Assembly (NCBI GenBank): GCA_030390025.1
Contig: CM059432.1
Span: 8,184,001-8,248,000, forward strand
From: Squalus acanthias
Lineage: Eukaryota
DNA: 64,000 bases
Direction of reading: 5' to 3'
Part shown: positions 42,515-56,979 of the stretch, piece after piece
Layout of the letters: every line of letters begins with the position of its first letter
Position numbering within the stretch: position 1 is the stretch's first letter
Made by a program: the position numbers and the translations under genes
Notes under the pieces: model-generated
Told to the model about the DNA's origin: nothing
Databases searched by the model: none
The model's input: the letters and a program-made list of their open reading frames with translations, nothing else

Positions 42515-44149
42515 TGTAAGGGGTGACCTGTGGCTCTGTGCTTAGCCTGGGTGCTAGTGCGGGGTTAGGCCCTGTTGCCTGCTCTGGTCTCCAGCCAGCC
42601 TGGTAACACTAGACACCTGTGAGTGGTTCGACCCACTCGCCCTTACGGTTCTGACACTGGACTTAGGTGCGAGAGCAATAATGCAGAGAAGACTCAGGTA
42701 GACCCGGTTGAATAGTGCGAAATGGAAAATCTTTATTGCATATTATTCAAGATTACGAGATACATGTCATAAGCACAGATTAACGACAGTACAATCTTAC
42801 ACACAGTTATGAAACTAATTTTAGGGAAACGAGGAGCGCACGACACATCGTAAAAGGGGATACACATTATAATTATCCTTAAAACTTAAACCCTCCCCTA
42901 TTAATACCTGTCCTAATCTAGATTTGTAGGATCGAGACTCATGCTCACCACTCGTGATAACTCGGAGAATTCCAAAACTCTGCTCGGATGTTTTTACCGC
43001 AGCACCTGACTATCCACGTGTTGATCAGGGGTCTCTGTACCCCACTTGTTTACTCGTTTCTGCTCCGGCTAGCAGGCTAGACCGTCTGCTGTCATGAAGA
43101 TCTGTGTTGTCCTCGGAGTTCTGATACTACTCAAAAAAGAGTCTTCCTGTGCCCTACACCGGTTCGGTAGAACTCGAAGAAGGATCTTCCTGGGCCAGTT
43201 GTGGAGTAGCCGATAAAATTCAAAGAAGTGTTTATTCGACTTACAGGCGCGGTCGGGGCTTACTGACCGTGGCGATGCGTATTGTTGTCTTCTTCTCTTC
43301 TCATCTCATCTCATCTCATCTCATCTCCTCTCGGGCCTTCGGTTCCAACACCGTTTACTGACTCCTCGGGATGGTGCGCCCGCCTCCAGGCCTCACAGCC
43401 CAGTTCTCCACAGATCTTCGCGGCAAGCCACGAGGTTGATCCTAGCGGATCAGAGTCCAGAGCTGTCAGGCAAGAGAATAAAAGTTCAGCAGTCTTCCAG
43501 CGAGTCAGAGCAGCAAGAGAAAGATGGACGATTGTACTTTACAGTTATAGTGCTGTAATTCCTCTTTTCCCGCCCAATCTTAATGTCTATCTTTTGTCAG
43601 GTTTTTGGCGCTCAAACTTCTTGTATGGGGTGATCTCAGTCTTTAATGGGTTTCGGTGATACTTGTAACTGTCTGAGTACCCGTTAATATTTCTCCCATT
43701 GTGGAACCGGCTAGTAGTCTCCCTGGAGGGGTTTTGGGGCTTCCAAATGCTTACTGTGAGTACCCGCAAACGGCTCTCTCATCGTAGAGTCATGGGGATT
43801 TTGCATATTAATGTCTTTGGATGGGTCCTTGATCGCTCAGTACAATAGCCCTTGTTTGCACCTGGGAGACCGATTTCAGTATTCATGTTTAAAGTGTAAA
43901 CCCATCGCGTCTTGTCATTATCTCATCATGTTGGATCTTTTCGATCTTGCACAAATGTTTATTGGAAACGCCATCTTGTCTGCCTACTGAAAGTCTAGAA
44001 CTTTCTGCCACGAGGCGTGGTGGCCATTTTACAGGCTGTTTGTGTCCGTTTTGAAACCTGACAGCATTCTGCTGAAATAAAGCTGTTTATACGAAACTTT
44101 ATGTCTCCTTCTTATTTTTATAAAATCGCATAATTTTGGGAATTCTACA
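42515..44149 (-). repeat. 3' LTR (1635 bp)
   Basis: Direct repeat of 50167-51800 with roughly 20-25 differences by eye. Minus-strand AATAAA at 42732-42737 and an internal (TCTCA)n tract. Confidence 0.95.
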
Positions 44150-44594: not shown

Positions 44595-46946
44595 TTACGT
44601 GGTGCTTTCATCGTGCACGCGCACGTAACGTTCTCGCCACTCTCCCGTGTTTTCGTTCTTGGTGAGGCGTTTACCTCTCTTACAATGCACGACCAATAAG
44701 TATATCACAATAAACACTTGGCATATAACTAAAATGTGGGAGGCTATTCTAATCCAGGAAGGCACTTCAATGTTGGTGAACAGATCCCACCACGGTGGAA
44801 TTCCTATGTCTAGAATTTCTGTCCCTATCTCGACAGTCTTTTGTTCTAGGGTGTAAAAATGTTTTTGCGATACCGCGACGGCTTTCAAAAGCTTGGTGGG
44901 GTGTTCAGGGAGAGGGGGAATGAGGTATCCGAAATGCGCGACGAATCGCTGCAAGTCGGTGAAGTTCTCTTTTACTGTAAGATGAACAGTGGATGGTTCA
45001 GGGATCGGGACAATTCGCTGTTGTGCCACTTGAACTTCCGCCCTGGGTTTAAAGCAGAAACTGCTGTCACTCACCGGACACCGGCTACGGTTTCCATGCT
45101 GGTAGTGTTGCGCTGCAGTGGTAACACAATATGTTCCACCCCCGATGTATGCTACCTGCGGAGGCACATGATCTTGTGCCATTGCCTCCATGGTGCAATT
45201 CATGGGCTTGGCGCCAGCCGTTCTGAACCCGCACTGTGGTGTTAAAAAGGCATTCAAGTGCTGGGGACACAGTATTATGTGTGCTCCCCGGCCACGACAA
45301 CCAGAGAGATCTGTACCTGTCATCGTTTGCTCCCAGCGTATGACGTAAGATGGAACCGCTGCATAGCGAATGTGGGCTCCCCCCTGAATGACACCAATGT
45401 TCTCTACCCGATACACCGGGGCAGGCTTTGCTGTGTCGCCCAAAACCGGTATACGTAATACTATACCCATGATGGTGTGGTTTGATCGTCCGCAGTCCAC
45501 GGGGACTGGGTATGCTTCTGAAGCTAGCCTGAGCTGGCACGGGCTTAATGCGTTCTGAAAAGGGTGGAGCGCCTGCAGGTGTTTGTTACTTATCCAGGAC
45601 GGGACCAAACCTTGTTTTAAATCCTCCAAATTACTGCGGCCCTCGCCCAGTAACCACGCCCCGTAAAGCACGCACACCTCATTCTGCGCAGCCTGATCGG
45701 ACGCATTACGATCTTCCCTGATCAGGGCATTTACCGTGCGCGCATGTTTCTCTAGTTCAGCTATTATTTCCTTTAAGTGTAGCGTCATGGCCTGGTCCTC
45801 ATGTAACCCAGACCCAACCATCTTATTTTCATCTGTGAGAATGTTCTTCAATTGTGTTTTTAAGCCATTAATCTGGGTCTGCAGCTCCACACTGTCTAGA
45901 GCGTTGACCACAGATGTACCTGTATTGAAAGCAGTGAACATGTCGTTCACAACACCCCTTCTTTGTCTCCCCACCTGACCCAAAACTTCATGTGGTGCGG
46001 TGTACAAACTTGTTTTATCAATTTCCGCGAAATCGAACTCATAAAATTGCCTAAACATCTTGGTCAACAGGATCTGATATAACTGTTCCGTCTCTTTGGG
46101 GCACCACTCCGGCAACCGCACCTCGGTGAGGTTTAAAATCACTGAGGCCACCGCGTAATGTACCCCCTGAAATAGTATCTGGTCTGTAGGGACCAATACC
46201 AAACCATTCCCGGGTCCCTTACTGGTTTTTGGGCACCCTTCTTCCTTAGCTAGAACCACCGGAATCGTGGGCGGGGCCTTGCGTGGGCGCGTAATGAGTT
46301 CAGTGGCATTTACCGGGATCGGAGAGTATGGAGCTCCGCACCCCCTGGTGCTCGCATCCCACCTCATCCCCTGCCCGTTATCCTGCCACTGATTGATGAA
46401 AAATATGGAGATGCCTTTGGGGCAAACGTGCTTTGACTCCCACATACATACATAAATTCCCTCATCCGGTTCCCACCATTTGTCCCAACAGACTCTCACT
46501 TGTCCGTTTGTCCCCGTAATTGTCCGATGGGTATTATTACCCAGTCGCTCCCACTCGACCGAAGAGTTCCTCATGTTTTTGCTCAGCTTTCGCAGCCACC
46601 ACCATCGGCTCAATGGGACATTCCCATTACAAGTCAAACAAATCCGTTTGCCGACGGTGACGCTGACTCTGGGTGCGATGATCCTCACTTTGGGGCACAT
46701 TAAAGAAGTCTCTTTGTAGGCAAAACCCGATGTACTGGAATACTCAGTGGAATTCGTTCCCAGCCATCCTGGCCACCTTCCCTTGTGGAAATAGGTGGTG
46801 GTATCCTTAGCCTCTCGCCTTCCGGTCCCATCCATCGCGATGGGGGCCATGTCCCCGGAGCATCCAAACACCACGACATCCTTGGTGCGGCCTCGATAGG
46901 CCAGTCCACATCCGATTGCCGCGAGCACTACTAGAATCCGTTCCAT
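44595..46946 (-). CDS. Envelope-like type I glycoprotein (ORF open from 47105; probable start at 46946)
   Basis: Signal peptide MERILVVLAAIGCGLA, Ig-like domain, furin site RQRR (45957-45968), putative fusion peptide and heptad repeat, Cys-rich region, N-glycosylation sequons, TM IASHILVICQVFIVIYLLVV and a short tail. Confidence 0.88.
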   Translation of the reverse strand: MERILVVLAAIGCGLAYRGRTKDVVVFGCSGDMAPIAMDGTGRREAKDTTTYFHKGRWPGWLGTNSTEYSSTSGFAYKETSLMCPKVRIIAPRVSVTVGKRICLTCNGNVPLSRWWWLRKLSKNMRNSSVEWERLGNNTHRTITGTNGQVRVCWDKWWEPDEGIYVCMWESKHVCPKGISIFFINQWQDNGQGMRWDASTRGCGAPYSPIPVNATELITRPRKAPPTIPVVLAKEEGCPKTSKGPGNGLVLVPTDQILFQGVHYAVASVILNLTEVRLPEWCPKETEQLYQILLTKMFRQFYEFDFAEIDKTSLYTAPHEVLGQVGRQRRGVVNDMFTAFNTGTSVVNALDSVELQTQINGLKTQLKNILTDENKMVGSGLHEDQAMTLHLKEIIAELEKHARTVNALIREDRNASDQAAQNEVCVLYGAWLLGEGRSNLEDLKQGLVPSWISNKHLQALHPFQNALSPCQLRLASEAYPVPVDCGRSNHTIMGIVLRIPVLGDTAKPAPVYRVENIGVIQGGAHIRYAAVPSYVIRWEQTMTGTDLSGCRGRGAHIILCPQHLNAFLTPQCGFRTAGAKPMNCTMEAMAQDHVPPQVAYIGGGTYCVTTAAQHYQHGNRSRCPVSDSSFCFKPRAEVQVAQQRIVPIPEPSTVHLTVKENFTDLQRFVAHFGYLIPPLPEHPTKLLKAVAVSQKHFYTLEQKTVEIGTEILDIGIPPWWDLFTNIEVPSWIRIASHILVICQVFIVIYLLVVHCKRGKRLTKNENTGEWRERYVRVHDESTT

Positions 46947-47242
46947 CCTTCCTTGGTTCCTGTGATCAGATAGAATGAGGTAGCCAGCCTCCCAAGAGTC
47001 TCTGGCTTTTGTGAAGGGTGAGCGGGTCCCCTGACCTCGCCTCACGTAAGAAGACATGTGCGCTGGATAGACTTTAACTATTCCTATCTCTAAAACTCCC
47101 ATCATTTTACCATTTTCTGTTAAAAACCTTAAACTACAAACTTAACCTGATTTAAGAACTATAAACTTGAACTTACAAAACTTATCAACTTATCACTTAT
47201 CTTAATAACTGTACAGTGCCGCCCGTTCCCAGGGCGGCCTAC

Positions 47243-48355
47243 TCAAATTCTGCGGTCGCTGCCGCAGGCTTCTCCCAACGGTGGGAGGGCATTGACCCCT
47301 CCCTTTGATCTGCCGCAGCCTGTTGCTGCTGCGCTGTGACTGGGCTCTCCCTGGGCTGCCTTAGCCCTGGACCTACGCTTAGGGACATACGGGGGACTTA
47401 CCCACATCTTTCTGGGCTGGGGTTTCCGACTTGACCTACGGGGAACTACCGGGGGCAGGAACTCCAGGACTGACGGACCGGGTTCCGAGACTTCCACCGT
47501 GGCGACCTGTGGTCCCACCACAGTCGCTGGCTCCGCCTCCCCTGACTCCGCCTCCCTGAACTCGGGATCTGCAGCTTGTGGCACCGCCCTACTTGGCCCA
47601 GTAGGCGGCCCTTCACTCGCAGTCCCTACCTCCCTCGAGGGCAGGACGTTCAAGGCGGGCGGCTTGGGCTCTGAGGCTTCCATCGCCACGCCCTGTGGTC
47701 CCACCACAGCGGCTGGCTCTGCCTCCCCTAGCTCCGCCCCCCTGCGTTCGGGACCAGCAGCTTCGGCCTCCACCCTGTGTGGATCTCTATCTGCAGCCCC
47801 TGTCTCCCCTACACCTGAATCGGGGGCGACCCTTTCGTCCTCCGATTCCAGCTCCTCTTCGCTTGCGTCACTATCTTGGTCGAGCTCCTCGAACTCTTCC
47901 TCATCTGACTCCCAACCCAAATAAAGGATCCTACATTTTGCTAGGATGTCCTCTCCCCTGATGCAAGCTGCTTTGCCTGCCTGTGTGCCCTGTGGCCCTA
48001 CCCGGGGCTGCGAGTCCCCACTCGCAGGTTTGGCCCCTGTGGTTGGCCCTTGTGCACCCGGCTTATACAGTTTGCACTGGTTAAAATCCTCATACTCCCT
48101 GCTTCTGGCTACCCTGTAGGCTGCCTTTATCGCTCCAAGCTGCCCTTCCAGCACGTCTAACTTTCCCATTAAGCGGGCGTTCTCCTCCCGCAGGGCCTGC
48201 TCTCTAAGCTGCCCTTCTAGCCCGTCTACTTTCCCTATTAAACGGGCGTTCTCCTCCCGCAAGGCCTGCTCTTCTAACCTGGCCTCCCTACAGGAGACCC
48301 CCTCCTGTGTGTGTCTTTTAAAGGGACACAGGTAGGCAGGCTGCGTGGGCTCTAG
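47243..48355 (-). CDS. ORF2: coiled-coil plus acidic/Pro-rich protein, in frame with gag after a single UGA
   Basis: The frame is open from the codon after the gag stop (48355) to 47243. No PR, RT, RNase H or IN catalytic motifs. Confidence 0.7.
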   Translation of the reverse strand, partial: LEPTQPAYLCPFKRHTQEGVSCREARLEEQALREENARLIGKVDGLEGQLREQALREENARLMGKLDVLEGQLGAIKAAYRVARSREYEDFNQCKLYKPGAQGPTTGAKPASGDSQPRVGPQGTQAGKAACIRGEDILAKCRILYLGWESDEEEFEELDQDSDASEEELESEDERVAPDSGVGETGAADRDPHRVEAEAAGPERRGAELGEAEPAAVVGPQGVAMEASEPKPPALNVLPSREVGTASEGPPTGPSRAVPQAADPEFREAESGEAEPATVVGPQVATVEVSEPGPSVLEFLPPVVPRRSSRKPQPRKMWVSPPYVPKRRSRAKAAQGEPSHSAAATGCGRSKGGVNALPPLGEACGSDRRI

Positions 48356-50162
48356 TCATTGGGTACCGGTGGACGGGGCTGCGGCATCTGCGGGGCCGGT
48401 AGCGACTGCCACCCTTCCCTGCGAAATCATGAGGGTGCGCATGGCTCCCAACATTGATTCGATCGCATCGGGATGGATAGGTGCACCAGCTCCCCTATCA
48501 GAAACAGGCGCCTGGGCTCGGACTGCGGGATTTTTATCCCTGGACTCCTTCCAAGGATTCCTGCAGTTCTTGCGCCAGTGCCCTGTCTTTCCGCATCCGA
48601 AACAAGCATTACTGGCCTGTGGGACGCGATTTCCCTCCTGATGCCACTCCTTTTGAGCCGGGGCTGTGGGCCGCGCCTCATGCACCTTTCCCTTAAGGGG
48701 ACGTGCTCCCGCACTCCTGGTATTACGGTACCCTACCGTGAGTCGATTTAGGACCGACTCCTCTGTAGTGGCAGGGTTAGTGGGATCAAACCACGCTTTG
48801 GCCTGCTCCCTGACGGCTGGCAAACTGTTGGCTACCACACACCTGAGCCAATGAGTTAAACCGACACCGTCTAGGCGGTGACGCGCTGGTGCGCCTGGGC
48901 AGCTACGCTGGTATACTGGCCACAGCCTGTCGGCGAAAACCTTCGGGGGTTCTCCCTCCATCTGCACTGTTTGTGCCAATCTAACGAACGGACCTTCATC
49001 GTCCGCGCCCAACACTTCCAGGACCTCGTCCCTCAATTCCCCATAGGTATTATTTCCCCTCTTGCTCTCGTCTGAGAGACACTGAAGGATCGAGCTGTCT
49101 AATGAGAACAACAGCATTTTTGCTTTTTCCCCATCGTCGCAGCCGTTAATGGCTGCGGTTTGCTCTACCTCCCTGAAATGTACGGAAGGGTCGTCTGACT
49201 CGGACAGCTTCCGTACGTGACTGATCATAGCCCTCAGCTGGTGTGAGCTGTGAGGCAACACAAGCTGGTTGAGGAGATCCCCCTCTGCCCCACCGTCTCT
49301 GTTCGGGCCCCTTTTGATACCCGTGACCGGACACAACGGTCCCGGCTTCACTTCTACCTCGGGGGGCTCTTTCTCTACTTCTACCACTTCCTTCCTCACC
49401 CAGGTTGCCGAATAGCTGGGTGGCGCGGAGGGCACAGTGGCAAATACCTCCTCTGCTTTGTTCGGTGGGGATTTCTGAAATTCCCCATCCACCAGCGGCT
49501 GGTGTGCTGACGGGCTGATAAGGCACACCATGCCGTGCGCTTTATTCAGGGCCTCTTTAAGGTTCCCTATCTCTCTTTGGCAGACGCTGTGATCGGCCCC
49601 CTCATGTTTATCCTCGAGGGCCATCTTATATGCCGCCCTAACCCCCGTTAAGCTCTCTTCCTGGGCTTTTATTTGGGCAGCTAGGCGGGCACATCGTTCC
49701 TTTATTCTGCCCTCATTTAACTTTGCCTCAGTGACCTGGCACTCGAGGTAATCTATTTTCGCCTCATGGTGGTTGGCGACTAACTGACGTTCTTGATGCA
49801 ACGCATTTAAAGACGCGATGAGCTGCTGCCCCCCCCGCGACCTTCTCGTCCATTTCCACCTCTAAACCCTTGATCTGAGCTGCCTGCGCTATGATGACCT
49901 GGTCCGAAAGCTGGACTTGTCTTTTATAGCACATCAGCCAGTCCGCTTTCTCTACTGTTCTTTTATGTTCCTTGCTACCTGTCCACCTCATGGCTGCCTC
50001 TAGTGGACACTTATCCACCAGCAGGTCACTTATCCATTTCTTAGTCAAATTCACTTTTCCAAACACATAATCTGCTATTCTCTCTTCCATAACATTTCGC
50101 CCATTCATACCAGGGTCTAACACATTATTTTCTCGCTGCCAGTGTCCCTTCGTGGTCGCCAT
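48356..50162 (-). CDS. Gag (~600 aa), one frameshift in a G8 run at 49829-49836
   Basis: Coiled coil, PSAPPSY, capsid-like region with MHR-like QMEGEPPKVFADRL, and zinc knuckle CFGCGKTGHWRKNC (48563-48604). Removing one G joins ORFs 49764-50162 and 48356-49801. Confidence 0.85.
50144..50161 (-). promoter_or_regulatory. Primer-binding site, tRNA-Arg
   Basis: TGGCGACCACGAAGGGAC, 5 nt after the 5' LTR. Complementary to the 3' 18 nt of a vertebrate tRNA-Arg(UCG) (...GUCCCUUCGUGGUCGCCA), recalled rather than searched. Confidence 0.85.
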
Positions 50163-50166
50163 TATC

Positions 50167-51800
50167 TGTAAGGGGTGACCTGTGGCTCTGTGCTTAGCCT
50201 GGGTGCTAGTGCGGGGTTAGGCCCTGTTGCCTGCTCTGGTCTCCAGCCAGCCTGGTAACACTAGACACCTGTGAATGGTTCGACCCACTCGCCCTTACGG
50301 TTCTGACACTGGACTTAGGTGCGAGAGCAATAATGCAGAGAAGACTCAGGTAGACCCGGTTGAATAGTGCGAAATGGAAAATCTTTATTGCATATTATTC
50401 AAGATTATGAGATACATGTCATAAGCACAGATTAACGATAGTACAATCTTACACACAGTTAGGAAACTAATTTTAGGGAAACGAGGAGCGCACGACACAT
50501 CGTAAAAGGGGACACACATTATAATTATCCTTAAAACTTAAACCCTCCCCTATTAATACCTGTCCTAATCTAGATTTGTATGATCGAGACTCATGCTCAC
50601 CACTCGTGATAACTCGGAGAATTCCGAAACTCTGCTCGGATGTTTTTACCGCAGCACCTGACTATCCACGTGTTGATCAGGGGTCTCTGTACCCCACTTG
50701 TTTACTCGTTTCTGCTCCGGCTAGCAAGCTGGACCGTCTGCTGTCATGAAGATCTGTGTTGTCCTCGGAGTTCTGATACTACTCAAAAAAGAGTCTTCCT
50801 GTGCCCTACATCGGTTCGATAGAACTCGAAGAAGGGTCTTCCTGGGCCAGTTGTGGAGTAGCCGATAGAATTCAAAGAAGTGTTTATTCGACTTACAGGC
50901 GCGGTCGGGGCTTACTGACCGTGGCGATGCGTATTGTCGTCTTCTTCTCTTCTCATCTCATCTCATCTCATCTCATCTCCTCTCGGGCCTTCGGTTCCAA
51001 CACCGTTTACCGACTCCTCGGGATGGTGCGCCCGCCTCCAGGCCTCACAGCCCAGTTCTCCACAGATCTTCGCGGCAAGCCACGAGGTTGATCCTAGCGG
51101 ATCAGAGTCCAGTGCCGTCAGGCAAGAGAATAAAAGTTCAGCAGTCTTCCAGCGAGTCAGAGCAGCAAGAGAAAGATGGACGGTTGTACTTTACAGTTAT
51201 AGTGCTGTAATTCCTCTTTTCCCGCCCAATCTTAATGTCTATCTTTTGTCAGGTTTTTGGCGCTCAAACTTCTTGTATGGGGTGATCTCAGTCTTTAATG
51301 GGTTTCGGTGATACTTGTAACTGTCTGAGTACCCGTTAATATTTCTCCCATTGTGGAACCGGCTAGTAGTCTCCCTGGAGGGGTTTTGGGGCTTCCAAAT
51401 GCTTACTGTGAGTACCCGCAAACGGCTCTCTCATCGTAGAGTCATGGGGATTTTGCATATTAATGTCTTTGGATGGGTCCTTGATCGCTCAGTACAATAG
51501 CCCTTGTTTGCACCTGGGAGACCGATTTCAGTATTCATGTTTAAAGTGTAAACCCATCGCGTCTTGTCATTATCTCATCATGTTGGATCTTTTCGATCTT
51601 GCACAAATGTTTATTGGAACGCCATCTTGTCTGCCTACTGAAAGTCTAGAACTTTCTGCCACGAGGCGTGGTGGCCATTTTACAGGCTGTTTGTGTCGTT
51701 TTGAAACCTGACAGCATTCTGCTGAAATAAAGCTGTTTATACGAAACTTTATGTCTCCTTCTTATTTTTATAAAATCGCGATAATTTTGCGAATTCTACA
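50167..51800 (-). repeat. 5' LTR (1634 bp)
   Basis: Direct repeat of 42515-44149, with the PBS adjacent. Confidence 0.95.
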
Positions 51801-52630: not shown

Positions 52631-53092
52631 GAAACTGCGCCCCCATCTCCAAACTCTCGTTCCTCTCCAACGCTATTGAACGTGTTGACACTTTCCGAAT
52701 CGATGCCTGTCTTCCCTGCAACTTTATATCTGAGTCTCTCTAAGTCAGATTTCTGCTCCTGCCACAGCAATAAAATGGCTCTTATCAAAGTCACGGATTA
52801 GTTCCTATGTCACTGTGGTGCGCTATCCCTCCTCATCCTTCTCGACCTGTCTGCAGCCTTTGACTCACTAGAGCGCACCATCCCACTCCAACGCCTCTCC
52901 TCCATTCTCCAGCTCAGTGGGACTGCTCTGCCCTCTTCTTCCTCATCTAAATACTGGCCCTTGTATGAACCCCAGACACAGGGCCAGTTTCCACATGTAA
53001 GCTGACAACGCCAGCGATGCCTCTCCAGTACCTCTCTATCGCTCGAGCACTCAAAAGCAAACTAAAGCCCCTTTGAAGGGAACAGATTGGAA

Positions 53093-56000
53093 GGGAGTGT
53101 CGGCGAGAGAGGGGAGTGTCGGAGGGAGAGGGGAGCGAAGGAGGGAGAGGGGTGTGTCGGAGAGAGAGGGGAGTGTAGGAGGGAGAGGGGAGTGTCGGAG
53201 AGAGAGGAGAGTGTCGGAGGGAGAGGGGAGTGTCGGAGGGAGAGGGGAGTGTCGGAGGGAGAGGGGAGTGTCGAGGGAGAGGGGAGTGTCGGAGAGAGAG
53301 GGGAGTGTCGAAGGGAGAGGGGAGTGTCGGAGGGAGAGGGGAGTGTCGGAGGGAGAGGGGAGTGTCGGGGGGAGAGGGGAGTGTCGGAGGGAGAGGGGAG
53401 TGTCGGAGGAAGAGGGGAGTGTCGGAGGGAGAGGGGAGTGTCGGAGAGAGAGGGGAGTGTCGGAGGGAGAGGGGAGTGTTGGAGGGGGAGGGGAGTGTAG
53501 GAGGGAGAGGGGAATGTCGGAGGGAGAGGGGAGTGTCGGGGGGAGAGGGGAGTGTCGGGGGGAGAGGGGAGTGTCGGAGGGAGAGGGGAGTGTCGGAGAG
53601 AGTGGAGTGTCGGAGGGAGAGGGGAGTGTCGGAGGGAGAGGGGAGTGTCGGAGGGAGAGGGGAGTGTCGGAGGGAGAAAGGGAATGTCGGAGGGAGAGGG
53701 GAATGTCGGAGGGAGAGGGGAGTGTCGGAGAGAGAGGGGAGTGTCGGAGAGAGAGGGGAGTGTCGGAGAGAGAGGGGAGTGTCGGAGAGAGAGGGGAGTA
53801 TCGGAGGGAGAGGGGAGTGTCGGAGGGGGAGGGGAGTGTCGGAGGAAGAGGGGAGTGTCGGAGGGAGAGGGGAGTGTCGGAGAGAGAGGGGAGTGTCGGA
53901 GGGAGAGGGGAATGTCGGAGGGAGAGGGGAATGTCGGAGAGAGAGGGGAGTGTCGGGGGGAGAGGGGAGTGTCGGAGAGAGAGGGGAGTGTCGGAGAGAG
54001 AGGGGAGCGTCGGAGTGAGAGAGGAGTGTCGGAGGGAGAGGGGAGTGTAGGAGAGGGAGAGGGGAGTGTCGGAGGGAGAGGGGAGTGTTGGAGAGAGAGG
54101 GGAGTGTAGGAGGGAGAGGGGAGTGTCGGAGAGAGAGGAGAGTGTCGGAGGGAGAGGGGAGTGTCGGAGAGAGAGGGGAGTGTCGGAGGGAGAGGGGAGT
54201 GTCGGAGGGAGAGGGGAGTGTCGGAGGGAGAGGGGAGTGTCGGGGGGAGAGGGGAGTATCGGAGGGAGAGGGGAGTGTCGGAGGGAGAGGGGAGTGTCGG
54301 AGGGAGAGGGGAGTGTCGGAGAGAGAGGGGAGTGTCGGAGGGAGAGGGGAGTGTCGGAGGGGGAGGGGAGTGTAGGAGGGAGAGGGGAATGTCGGAGGGA
54401 GAGGGGAGTGTCGGGGGGAGAGGGGAGTGTCGGGGGAGAGGGGAGTGTCGGGGGAGAGGGGAGTGTCGTTGAGAGAGGGGAGTGTCGGAGGGAGAGGGGA
54501 ATGTCGGAGAGAGGGGAGTGTCGGAGGGAGAGGGGAGTGTCGGAGGGAGAGGGGAGTGTCGGAGGGAGAGGGGAGTGTCGGAGGGAGAAAGGAAATGTCG
54601 GAGGGAGAGGGGAATGTCGGAGGGAGAGGGGAGTGTCGGAGAGAGAGGGGAGTGTCGGAGAGAGAGGGGAGTGTCGGAGTGAGAGGGGAGTGTCGGAGAG
54701 AGAGGGGAGTGTCGGAGAGAGAGGGGAGTGTCGGAGAGAGAGGGGAGTATCGGAGGGAGAGCGGAGTGTCGGAGGGAGAGGGGAGTGTCGGAGGGAGAGG
54801 GGAGTGTCGGAGGGAGAGGGGAGTGTAGGAGAGAGAGGGGAGTGTCGGAGGGAGAGGGGAATATCGGAGGGAGAGGGGAATGTCGGAGAGAGAGGGGAGT
54901 GTCGGGGGGAGAGGGGAGTGTCGGGGGGAGAGGGGAGTGTCGGAGGGAGAGGGGAGTGTCGGAGAGAGAGGGGAGTGTCGGAGAGAGAGGGGAGTGTCGG
55001 AGAGAGAGGGGAGTATCGGAGGGAGAGGGGAGTGTCGGAGGGAGAGGGGAGTGTCGGAGGGAGAGGGGAGTGTCGGAGGGAGAGGGGAGTGTCGGAGAGA
55101 GAGCGGAGTGTCGGAGGGAGAGGGGAATGTCGGAGGGAGAGGGGAATGTCGGAGAGAGAGGGGAGTGTCGGGGGGAGAGGGGAGTGTCGAGGGGAGAGGG
55201 GAGTGTCGGAGGGAGAGCTGAGTGTCGGAGGGAGAGGGGAGTGTCGGAGGGAGAGGGGAGTGTCGGAGGGAGAGGGGAGTGTCGGAGGGAGAGGGGAGTG
55301 TCGGAGGAAGAGGGGAGTGTCGGAGGGAGAGGGGAGCGTCGGAGAGAGAGGGGAGTGTCGGAGGGAGAGGGGAGTGTCGGAGGGGGAGGGGAGTGTAGGA
55401 GGGAGAGGGGAATGTCGGAGGGAGAGGGGAGTGTCGGGGGGAGAGGGGAATGTCGGAGGGAGAGGGGAGTGTCGGAGGGAGAGCTGAGTGTCGGAGAGAG
55501 TGGGGAGTGTCGGAGGGAGAGGGGAATGTTGGAGAGAGAGGGGAGTGTCGGAGGGAGAGGGGAGTGTCGGAGGGAGAGCTGAGTGTCGGAGGGAGAGGGG
55601 AATGTCGGAGGGAGAGGAGAATGTCGGAGGGAGAGGGGAATGTCGGAGAGAGAGGGGAGTGTCGGAGAGAGAGGGGAGTGTTGGGGGGAGAGCTGAGTGT
55701 CGGAGGGAGAGGGGAGTGTCGGAGGGAGAGGGGAGTGTCGGAGGGAGAGAGGAGTGTCGGAGTGAGAGGGGAGTGTAGGAGAGGGAGAGGGGAGTGTCGG
55801 AGGGAGAGGGGAGTGTCGGAGGGAGAGCTGAGTGTCGGAGGGAGAGGGGAGTGTCGGAGGGAGAGGGGAGTGTCGGAGGGAGAGCTGAGTGTCGGAGGGA
55901 GAGGGGAATGTCGGAGGGAGAGGGGAGTGTCGGAGGGAGAGCTGAGTGTCAGAGAGAGTGGGGAGTGTCGGAGGGAGAGGGGAATGTTGGAGAGAGAGGG

Positions 56001-56927
56001 GAGTGTCGGAGGGAGAGGGGAGTGTCGGAGGGAGAGCTGAGTGTCGGAGGGAGAGGGGAATGTCGGAGGGAGAGGAGAATGTCGGAGGGAGAGGGGAATG
56101 TCGGAGAGAGAGGGGAGTGTCGGAGAGAGAGGGGAGTGTTGGGGGGAGAGCTGAGTGTCGGAGGGAGAGGGGAGTGTCGGAGGGAGAGAGGAGTGTCGGA
56201 GTGAGAGGGGAGTGTAGGAGAGGGAGAGGGGAGTGTCGGAGGGAGAGGGGAGTGTCGGAGGGAGAGAGGAGTGTCGGAGGGAGAGGGGAATGTCGGAGGG
56301 AGAGAGGAGTGTCGGAGGGAGAGGGGAGTGTCGAAGGGAGAGGGGAGTGTCGGGGGGATTGCTGAGTGTTGGAGGGAGAGGGGAGTGTCGGAGGGAGAGG
56401 GGAGTGTCGGGGGGAGAGCTGAGTGTTGGAGGGAGAGGGGAGTGTCGGAGGGAGAGAGGAGTGTCGGAGGGAGAGGGGAGTGTCAGAGGGAGAGGGGAGT
56501 GTCGGAGGGAGAGAGGAGTGTCGGAGGGAGAGGGCAGTGTCGGAGGGAGAGCTGAGTGTCGGATGGAGAGGGGAGTGTCGGAGAGAGAGGGGAGTGTCGG
56601 GGGGAGAGCTGAGTGTCGGAGGGAGAGGGGAGTGTCGGGGGGAGAGCTGAGTGTCGGAGGGAGAGCGGAGTGTCGGAGGGAGAGGGGAGTGTCGGAGGGA
56701 GAGCTGAGTGTCGGAGGGAGAGGGGAGTGTCGGAGGGAGAGGGGAGTGTCGGGGGGAGAGCTGAGTGTCGGAGGGAGAGGGGAGTGTCGGAGAGAGAGGG
56801 GAATGTCGGAGAGAGAGGGGAGTGTCGGAGGGAGAGGGGAGTGTCGGGGGGAGAGCTGAGTGTCGGAGGGAGAGGGGAGTGTCGGAGGGAGAGAGGAGTG
56901 TCGGAGGGAGAGGGGAGTGTCGGAGGG
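53093..56927. repeat. 19-bp purine-rich minisatellite, ~200 units
   Basis: Unit GGAGGGAGAGGGGAGTGTC with point variants. Confidence 0.97.
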
Positions 56928-56979
56928 AAGCTGTTTGAGAGTGGAGTGCCTGCCATCTCTCACCACCTGTCCTTTTCAG

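Follow-up and report, generated by a model that had tools for sequence, protein, structure and literature searches.

A provirus lies on the minus strand (51800-42515) of the window analysed here, a 64-kb stretch of the Squalus acanthias genome (64,000 nucleotides of contig CM059432.1, assembly GCA_030390025.1, positions 8,184,001 to 8,248,000); it is composed of 1.6-kb long terminal repeats (LTRs), gag, a second open reading frame (ORF2) and an env-like open reading frame (ORF), and no protease, reverse transcriptase (RT), RNase H or integrase (IN) was detected in this element by a Pfam scan. The UGA-CUAG that closes its gag (48358-48352) is probably a retroviral gag-protease readthrough site, inherited by a pol-deleted, high-copy derivative and predicted to pass few ribosomes into ORF2. 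Relatives found in the same genome leave little doubt that this gag-pro readthrough site was inherited and has been kept in the pol-deleted family to which the element belongs, named A here and present in thousands of copies; that a few percent of the ribosomes read on into the 370-codon ORF2 is likely, judging from the sequence. The features on which the argument turns are the following:

48359..50162, minus strand: gag, about 601-607 amino acids in copies with an uninterrupted frame, containing one CCHC knuckle and a PPSY motif
48352..48358, minus strand: gag stop TGA followed by CTAG, read directly; TGA-CTAG is unchanged in 30/30 family-A copies, and TGA-CT is present in 89/89 junctions of five families
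47246..48355, minus strand: ORF2, 370 codons, with a pro leader (codons 1-11), a gag-like coiled coil with tandem repeat (about 24-90) and a C-terminal pol tail (92-370)

Gag-protease junctions in the five families

On the minus strand, gag ends with ACC CAA TGA CTA GAG CCC (TGA at 48358-48356, CTAG at 48355-48352), exactly as read in an earlier note on this DNA; gag and ORF2 share one frame with a single stop between them, and the frame after that stop stays open for 370 codons until a stop at 47245-47243, which agrees with the open frame from 48355 to 47243 described there. The start given for ORF2 in the list of open reading frames, 48262, is a mere TTG lying 31 codons past the gag stop, as the same note had remarked. 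ORF2 is opened by no conserved ATG: in 27 family-A copies the first in-frame ATG past the stop is found at codon 63 (16 copies) or at codon 40 (8 copies), and the remaining three reach a premature stop without any ATG; codon 40 is ATA in 18/27 of these copies and ATG in 12/13 copies of family D, a sister family. The heptamer TGACTAG is not enriched in the window, where four occurrences were found on both strands versus 7.35 expected; thus its meaning rests on its location at the gag stop and on its conservation in relatives.

The closest gag homologs are an uncharacterised skate protein (58% identity) and the B1-like protein P0003 (45%), and both terminate where the window gag does. A search of the dogfish's own genome with these two homologs led to four further families, named B1, A0/A0', D and B2. 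In B1, gag is followed by TGA CTGGAG and by LEAAQPVYLC...LLDTGAS, in a frame that seven loci keep open for 499 codons, up to the edge of the locus; its pol contains the Pfam domains RVT_1, RT_RNaseH_2 (tether), RNase_H, Integrase_H2C2 and rve, and an env-like ORF comes after. In A0/A0', where the end of gag is nearly the same as in the window, the junction reads TGA CTAAAG (11 loci) or TGA CTAGAG (5 loci), and the post-stop sequence L[KE]PAQPVYLCPL...LLDTGAS belongs to a frame open to the locus edge (488-490 codons) in six loci; the pol of A0' is one single frame. In both families the nucleocapsid (NC) zinc knuckle precedes the stop and the protease DTG follows it, and RT, RNase H and IN come further on; compared with solved structures, the RT of these relatives is best matched by the MLV/XMRV-type enzyme (E about 1e-60). 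Family D has TGA CTGGAA and an ORF2, while B2, the second pol-deleted family (loci L031-L035, L044, L046-L060 and L063), shows TGA CTAGAA, half a protease (DTGAAS), integrase-end motifs (..DQCKLFKP.., ..NQCKLYKP..) and a pol tail.

A second recoding site inside the pol of B1 was also considered and rejected. The frame changes to -1 after 687 codons in one locus (L061) and after 605 in another (L062); these differing places, together with the single-frame pol of A0', indicate independent defects.

All copies come from one genome, and only the best-scoring ones of each of the five families compared were sampled. In this set of 90 loci, one of which has no junction, every one of the 89 junctions had TGA followed by C (+4) and T (+5). 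The bases from +4 to +7 are CTAG in 55, CTGG in 22, CTAA in 11 and CTGA in one, with G at +6 in 23/89 junctions and CUAG or CUAA in 66/89; of the UGA-CUAG proposed originally, UGA-CU is kept across families and CUAG as such is not. The first 11 or so post-stop codons are the same in the window family and in the pro-bearing relatives, and the BLASTN alignment between the window element and A0' (81.5% identity) extends from the LTR through gag and ends 34 nucleotides (nt) past the T of TGA, that is, at the end of the first hairpin described below. Since the relatives combine TGA-CT, a common leader and in-frame protease, RT, RNase H and integrase, the window stop appears to be their gag-pro readthrough site, passed on by descent. 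The earlier note had supposed an ancestral gag-pol recoding signal and had suggested looking at the stop before pro in autonomous relatives; TGA-CT stands there in both B1 and A0/A0', and the sense codon or different frame that it had envisaged for other copies occurs in none of the 89 junctions. Among 1.84 billion representative proteins, 0/30 homologs bridge query position 608 and so cross the stop; longer, fused gag homologs were not found, which is weak evidence.

Origin of ORF2 and selection on its blocks

The origin of ORF2 was settled by pairwise comparison with the pol and gag of the relatives. The first 11 residues, LEPTQPAYLCP, represent the pro leader; residues 92-306 match the C-terminal tail of A0' pol with 60% identity over 267 aligned positions (E 4e-86), starting just past the SH3-like end of integrase (...NQCKLYKP...), and the tail matches B1 and B2 more weakly and in a colinear manner. 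The middle is a tandemly repeated coiled coil similar to gag residues 135-195 (E 3e-5), and family D contains a longer version of it, matching gag 138-221 (E 5e-13). No Pfam family was assigned to ORF2, and no homolog was identified by sequence among proteins of near length or in the ESM Atlas, where the best score was 0.82. The comparisons place ORF2 securely as a pol with an in-frame internal deletion, made of about 11-30 leader codons and a pol tail of about 280 residues with a gag-like coiled coil inserted between the two, and not as a foreign gene; in terms of origin, the designation "non-Pol protein" that it had received does not hold.

In many copies, a motif resembling the post-stop leader in both peptide and nucleotide sequence is found also inside gag, some 1000 nt before the stop (..KPGPLCPV.., to be compared with ..QPAYLCP.. 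at ORF2 codons 5-11). The recurring leader motifs of gag and ORF2 may be protease cleavage sites.

To estimate selection, families A and D were compared by the ratio of nonsynonymous to synonymous differences (pN/pS), given below for the gag frame (with 95% bootstrap intervals) and for the two off frames:

gag: 0.237 [0.20-0.28]; off frames 1.3-1.4
ORF2, all: 0.64 [0.51-0.82]; off frames 0.80 and 0.94
ORF2 codons 12-39, no protein-level constraint: 0.98 [0.29-3.79]; off frames 0.30 and 1.1
ORF2 codons 31-95: 0.25 [0.12-0.52]; off frames 1.1 and 2.3
ORF2 codons 31-62, which precede the common ATG: 0.17 [0.05-0.60]; off frames 0.50 and 5.1
ORF2 pol-tail block: 0.18 [0.06-0.37]; off frames 2.5 and 0.9
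ORF2 from alignment column 200 to the end: 0.84 [0.65-1.13]; off frames 0.72 and 0.85

Read in the gag frame, ORF2 contains two blocks under purifying selection, and its last 170 codons or so are unconstrained; for gag, the within-family value is 0.305. That parts of ORF2 are selected as protein in this frame even before any conserved start fits with an entry from gag.

Variation within family A was examined on copies retrieved from the 3.71-Gb genome with a 701-nt query spanning the junction, which gave 3699 first-look candidates; 40 were scored and are 93-100% identical. Of 28 copies, 20 keep ORF2 uninterrupted over 370 codons or more, and in seven the gag frame runs without a stop as far as the retrieved sequence goes (at least 614 codons). 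In the copy alignment, the shared insertions and deletions (indels) within gag and ORF2 measure 18, 6, 15 and 15 nt; those in the spacer between ORF2 and env measure 13, 7, 1, 2, 3 nt and so on, many of them not multiples of three. Most of the within-family differences are post-insertion decay and hence little informative.

RNA structure after the stop and the readthrough proposal

Two RNA features downstream of the stop have to be distinguished:

48325..48347, minus strand: conserved hairpin 1, with 5' arm 48347-48341, 9-nt loop 48340-48332 and 3' arm 48331-48325
48282..48291, minus strand: GTAGGGAGGC, 3' arm of the outer stem proposed in the earlier note, its first five nt being a possible pseudoknot partner of the hairpin-1 loop

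The stem-loop put forward in that note is present as far as pairing is concerned: GCCTGCCTAC (48341-48332) pairs with GTAGGGAGGC (48291-48282) at 9/10 positions, both inner hairpins can form, and the structure with the outer stem enforced has -26.4 kcal/mol versus -29.1 for the minimum free energy (MFE) fold of +12..+90, whose topology is nearly the same. The fold of the 112 nt at 48361-48250 has z = -2.19, with 5/200 shuffles as stable. Covariation across copies, which had been proposed as a check, does not support the stem-loop: among 27 distinct A/D sequences there is no pair altered on both sides, and 18 of the sequences have lost pair 24-71. An alternative made of hairpin 1 and a local GGUCUCC/GGAGGCC hairpin has about 92% of its cells paired in A and D, like the proposed stem-loop; with equal pairing and no double changes, the two models are not distinguishable. 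An Rfam scan of 48150-48450 returned six chance-level hits (5.7-14.6 bits versus gathering scores of 50-90 bits).

Hairpin 1 starts 8-9 nt past the stop, has 6-7 base pairs and shares some bases with the stem proposed in the earlier note; it is the only consensus structure given by RNAalifold for 63 distinct junction sequences from the five families (arms +13..+18/+28..+33). When a facultative closing pair (+12/+34) is counted in, pairing extends to 91.6% of 441 cells; the closing pair itself is A-U in 13 sequences, G-C in eight, C-G in seven and unpaired in 35. The four third-codon positions within the core stem are invariant in 63, 63, 63 and 62 of the 63 sequences, and those in the spacer, the loop and the closing pair (column 12) are all variable (6/6). 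The last five bases of the loop can pair with a GURGA about 25-45 nt downstream, which corresponds to the core of the outer stem, and a pseudoknot would result; in 44 pro-bearing copies 219/220 cells of this pairing are paired, versus 43-65% in shifted registers, and one double change, from U-A to C-G, is seen in B2.

A possible course of events is as follows. With CAA as the final sense codon of gag and C-U-A-G after the UGA, the release factor would now and then lose the stop codon to a near-cognate tRNA; the UGA-CUAG context by itself would lead to about 1-8% readthrough in vertebrate cells, and the hairpin located 8-9 nt downstream may raise this level, its loop possibly pairing with the GUAGG situated about 40 nt beyond. 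A Gag-ORF2 fusion would result as a minor product, co-assembling through its Gag part and, in the proposal of the earlier note, packaged into particles in place of Pol; reverse transcription and integration would have to be supplied by the pol-bearing relatives. That such a fusion is useful to the element, rather than merely tolerated, can be advanced only tentatively and is somewhat doubtful. A further step, in which the cassette is kept on purpose because a metered Gag-X fusion docks particles or RNA to the Pol or integrase machinery of a helper, is speculative and rather improbable; if it were true, the selected parts would be the captured gag coiled coil and the conserved pol tail, and a signal that once served to make enzymes would have been repurposed for an adaptor that hijacks the helper.

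Several observations weigh against a readthrough site that is still in use. Translation of ORF2 is a prediction from sequence alone, and the gag of the window copy is itself frameshifted, being split in two ORFs (50162-49764 and 49801-48356) that overlap at 49764-49801; the copy alignment places the indel near 49850, as a 1-nt insertion shared by 4/30 aligned family-A copies including the window's, with a 1-nt deletion in another one. Among 2920 windows of 14 nt across gag and ORF2, 69 are likewise without any variable column in family A; windows this invariant are not rare, so that conservation of the stop context within the family is only marginal evidence. The 100 nt past the stop vary like the rest of the family (nucleotide diversity, pi, 0.066 versus 0.051), and post-stop synonymous identity between A0/A0' and B1 (0.69 in the first 12 codons) is no outlier along gag-pro. 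To these points must be added the lack of protein-level constraint on codons 12-39 and from column 200 onwards. As regards structure, hairpin 1 is weak (-4.7 kcal/mol in the window family, -4.7 to -6.4 across families) and its six core pairs show no covariation, so that its support comes only from the closing pair and the codon-position pattern; the loop pairing of the pro-bearing families is reached by 890/2000 shuffles, and it is mismatched in 20/27 A and in 13/13 D copies, being intact in 7/27 A copies, among them the window's. Finally, the post-stop frame of B2 is broken at scattered sites in most copies, a decay suggesting that a kept frame may be a mere relic.

The stop context and the frame could in fact be nothing else than such remnants of the ancestor, with a readthrough product that is a by-product without a role, an explanation that we consider unlikely. 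It would hold that ORF2 is open because the copies are young and GC-rich, and that the signal of selection reflects a pol-bearing history shared via recombination. The copies are just 3-7% diverged, and their histories are mosaic: the window env (44595-47105, compared with L061, L094 and L095) is 91% identical to the env of A0' and 74% to that of B1, while gag has 45% identity to the B1-like P0003, and in family D a B2-like gag end (..APYNPDF) is joined to an A-like ORF2. Moreover, pS is just 0.09-0.2 in the first 62 codons of ORF2 versus 0.51 in gag. The marginal conservation of the stop context, the pairing between loop and downstream bases degraded in most A and all D copies, the unconstrained last 170 or so codons and the decaying frame of B2 point in the same direction. 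However, the coiled-coil block has a pN/pS of 0.17-0.25, and since this block is absent from the pol-bearing relatives examined, its constraint is not borrowed from pol; every shared indel in ORF2 is a multiple of three and, per codon, ORF2 is less disrupted than gag (20/28 open over 370 codons versus 7/28 over at least 614).

It is very unlikely that ORF2 is instead made separately, from a spliced or internally initiated message, with the gag UGA acting as an ordinary, efficient terminator. Splicing is common in retroviruses, and an in-frame ATG is available at codon 40 (8/27 A, 12/13 D) or at codon 63 (16/27 A); but codon 40 is ATA in most of the A copies, codons 31-62, upstream of the second ATG, are constrained in the gag frame, and in the ancestor the homologous pol tail is reached by reading past this very stop. 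No joint into ORF2 was seen in contigs of four of the eight runs found, whose type was guessed and whose pieces are short and cannot exclude one. Hardly credible at all is a chance association, in which an ordinary stop happens to precede CTAG and an open frame: the lack of enrichment of TGACTAG in the window would agree with it, but the TGA-CT site, the frame and the codons that follow recur in five families with gag differing by up to 55%, and the junctions of B1 and A0/A0' already contradict it.

Inheritance of the gag-pro readthrough site by a pol-deleted family makes these elements a natural test of the fate of a recoding signal that no longer has enzymes to express. After the loss of pol, hairpin 1 has been kept along with the stop and its context, the longer-range pairing is being lost, and in the downstream frame two blocks are still selected; if the fusion were functional, it would be a novel means by which a non-autonomous retroelement makes use of a helper. 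The five diverged families also provide ready natural variants of the context (CUAG, CUAA and CUGG).

Provirus architecture and known readthrough systems

The other features of the provirus are those of a retroviral element:

50167..51800, minus strand: 5' LTR (TG...CA), 98.6% identical to the 3' LTR in a 1640-bp self-BLAST match, ends read
42515..44149, minus strand: 3' LTR, from self-BLAST with ends read, preceded by a purine-rich tract (44161-44150)
50144..50161, minus strand: primer-binding-site-like stretch of 18 nt, 5 nt past the LTR, overlapping the gag ATG (50162-50160)
44595..47105, minus strand: env-like ORF, 836 amino acids, with an RQRR site and a C-terminal membrane anchor

A 4-bp target-site duplication, CATC, flanks the element (51804-51801 and 42514-42511). 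The primer-binding-site-like stretch presumably matches the 3' end of tRNA-Arg; as the gag ATG overlaps it so close to the LTR, there is nearly no untranslated leader between LTR and gag. The zf-CCHC match of gag (E 0.0024) is under the Pfam cutoff. Past the RQRR site of the env-like ORF come a hydrophobic and heptad stretch, an extensive middle portion rich in Cys, another heptad region and, at the C-terminus, the anchor; in our reading this layout recalls proteins of the paramyxovirus-F type rather than ordinary retroviral transmembrane proteins. It has no match in Pfam, PF00523 included, even at E up to 10, nor among PDB sequences, and its AlphaFold model, from a four-row alignment, is too poor to use (mean pLDDT, the per-residue confidence, 27.4). 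Lokiretroviruses are characterised by an Env like the paramyxovirus F protein and by an RT that is sister to all retroviruses. Neither of two papers on them (PMC7947760, PMC9040795) uses the words frameshift, readthrough or stop codon, and a literature search on elasmobranch endogenous retroviruses (ERVs) gave unrelated papers only.

Beside the provirus, at 52947-56966, there is a satellite with a 19-nt period, reported as about 138 overlapping 300-nt copies, which generates a spurious ORF of 1339 amino acids made of PLSLRHS repeats.

UGA-CUAG had been cited from the beginning as a leaky context, and the literature bears this out: in the available text of PMC4132726, genes with UGA-CUAG show about 3.5-31% readthrough and UGA-CUA alone 1.5%; in that of PMC13517186, a review from 2026, UGACUA has a high basal readthrough and is the context of alphaviruses and dicistroviruses, found among viruses solely in those of animals (CHIKV, SINV and PSIV are named), and MDH1 with UGACUAGAC reaches 7.8%. 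According to the same portion of PMC13517186, stimulatory structures typically begin at +12 or +16, and the retroviral readthrough that has been measured is gammaretroviral, with UAG-GGA, an 8-nt spacer in Moloney murine leukemia virus (MoMLV) and an H-type pseudoknot; a UGA at gag-pro, with readthrough inferred, is listed there for SSSV (UGAAGA), ZFERV (UGACGA) and the toad ERV RMEV (UGAAGU).

As in gammaretroviruses such as MoMLV, gag and pro-pol of the relatives lie in the same frame, with one stop between the NC knuckle and the protease DTG, and a structure starts 8-9 nt past the stop in the present lineage. Differently from MoMLV, which has UAG-GGA, all the 89 junctions contain UGA-CU(A/G), the spacer is not purine-rich, and only a weak hairpin of 6-7 base pairs is conserved, the pseudoknot being a candidate; in addition, the downstream ORF of the window family is without the enzyme domains found in gammaretroviruses. 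With SSSV, ZFERV and RMEV the lineage shares an in-frame UGA between gag and pro, whose readthrough is inferred, and aquatic lower-vertebrate hosts; however, its UGACUA or UGACUG is the context of none of those three, as far as the available text of PMC13517186 describes them.

In the stop itself the likeness is to type II readthrough, known for alphavirus nsP3/nsP4 and for the vertebrate genes OPRL1, OPRK1, AQP4, MAPK10 and MDH1, where the identical heptamer UGA-CUAG is followed by an in-frame extension; the window sequence UGACUAGAG differs from the MDH1 nonamer solely at the last base. Unlike in these genes, positions +6 and +7 vary between the present families. The lineage thus joins the UGA-CU(A/G) context of alphaviruses and vertebrate genes with a small hairpin at an MLV-like spacing of 8-9 nt, a combination that was not found described in the literature searches made.

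Mouse intracisternal A-particle (IAP) elements of the I-delta-1 type are pol-deleted and produce a Gag-delta-Pol fusion, constitutively or via frameshift. Family A resembles them in the in-frame internal deletion of pol, the high copy number and the need for a helper that would follow; conversely, its fusion would be made in minor amounts, under the control of a stop codon, and its pol remnant gained a gag-like coiled coil.

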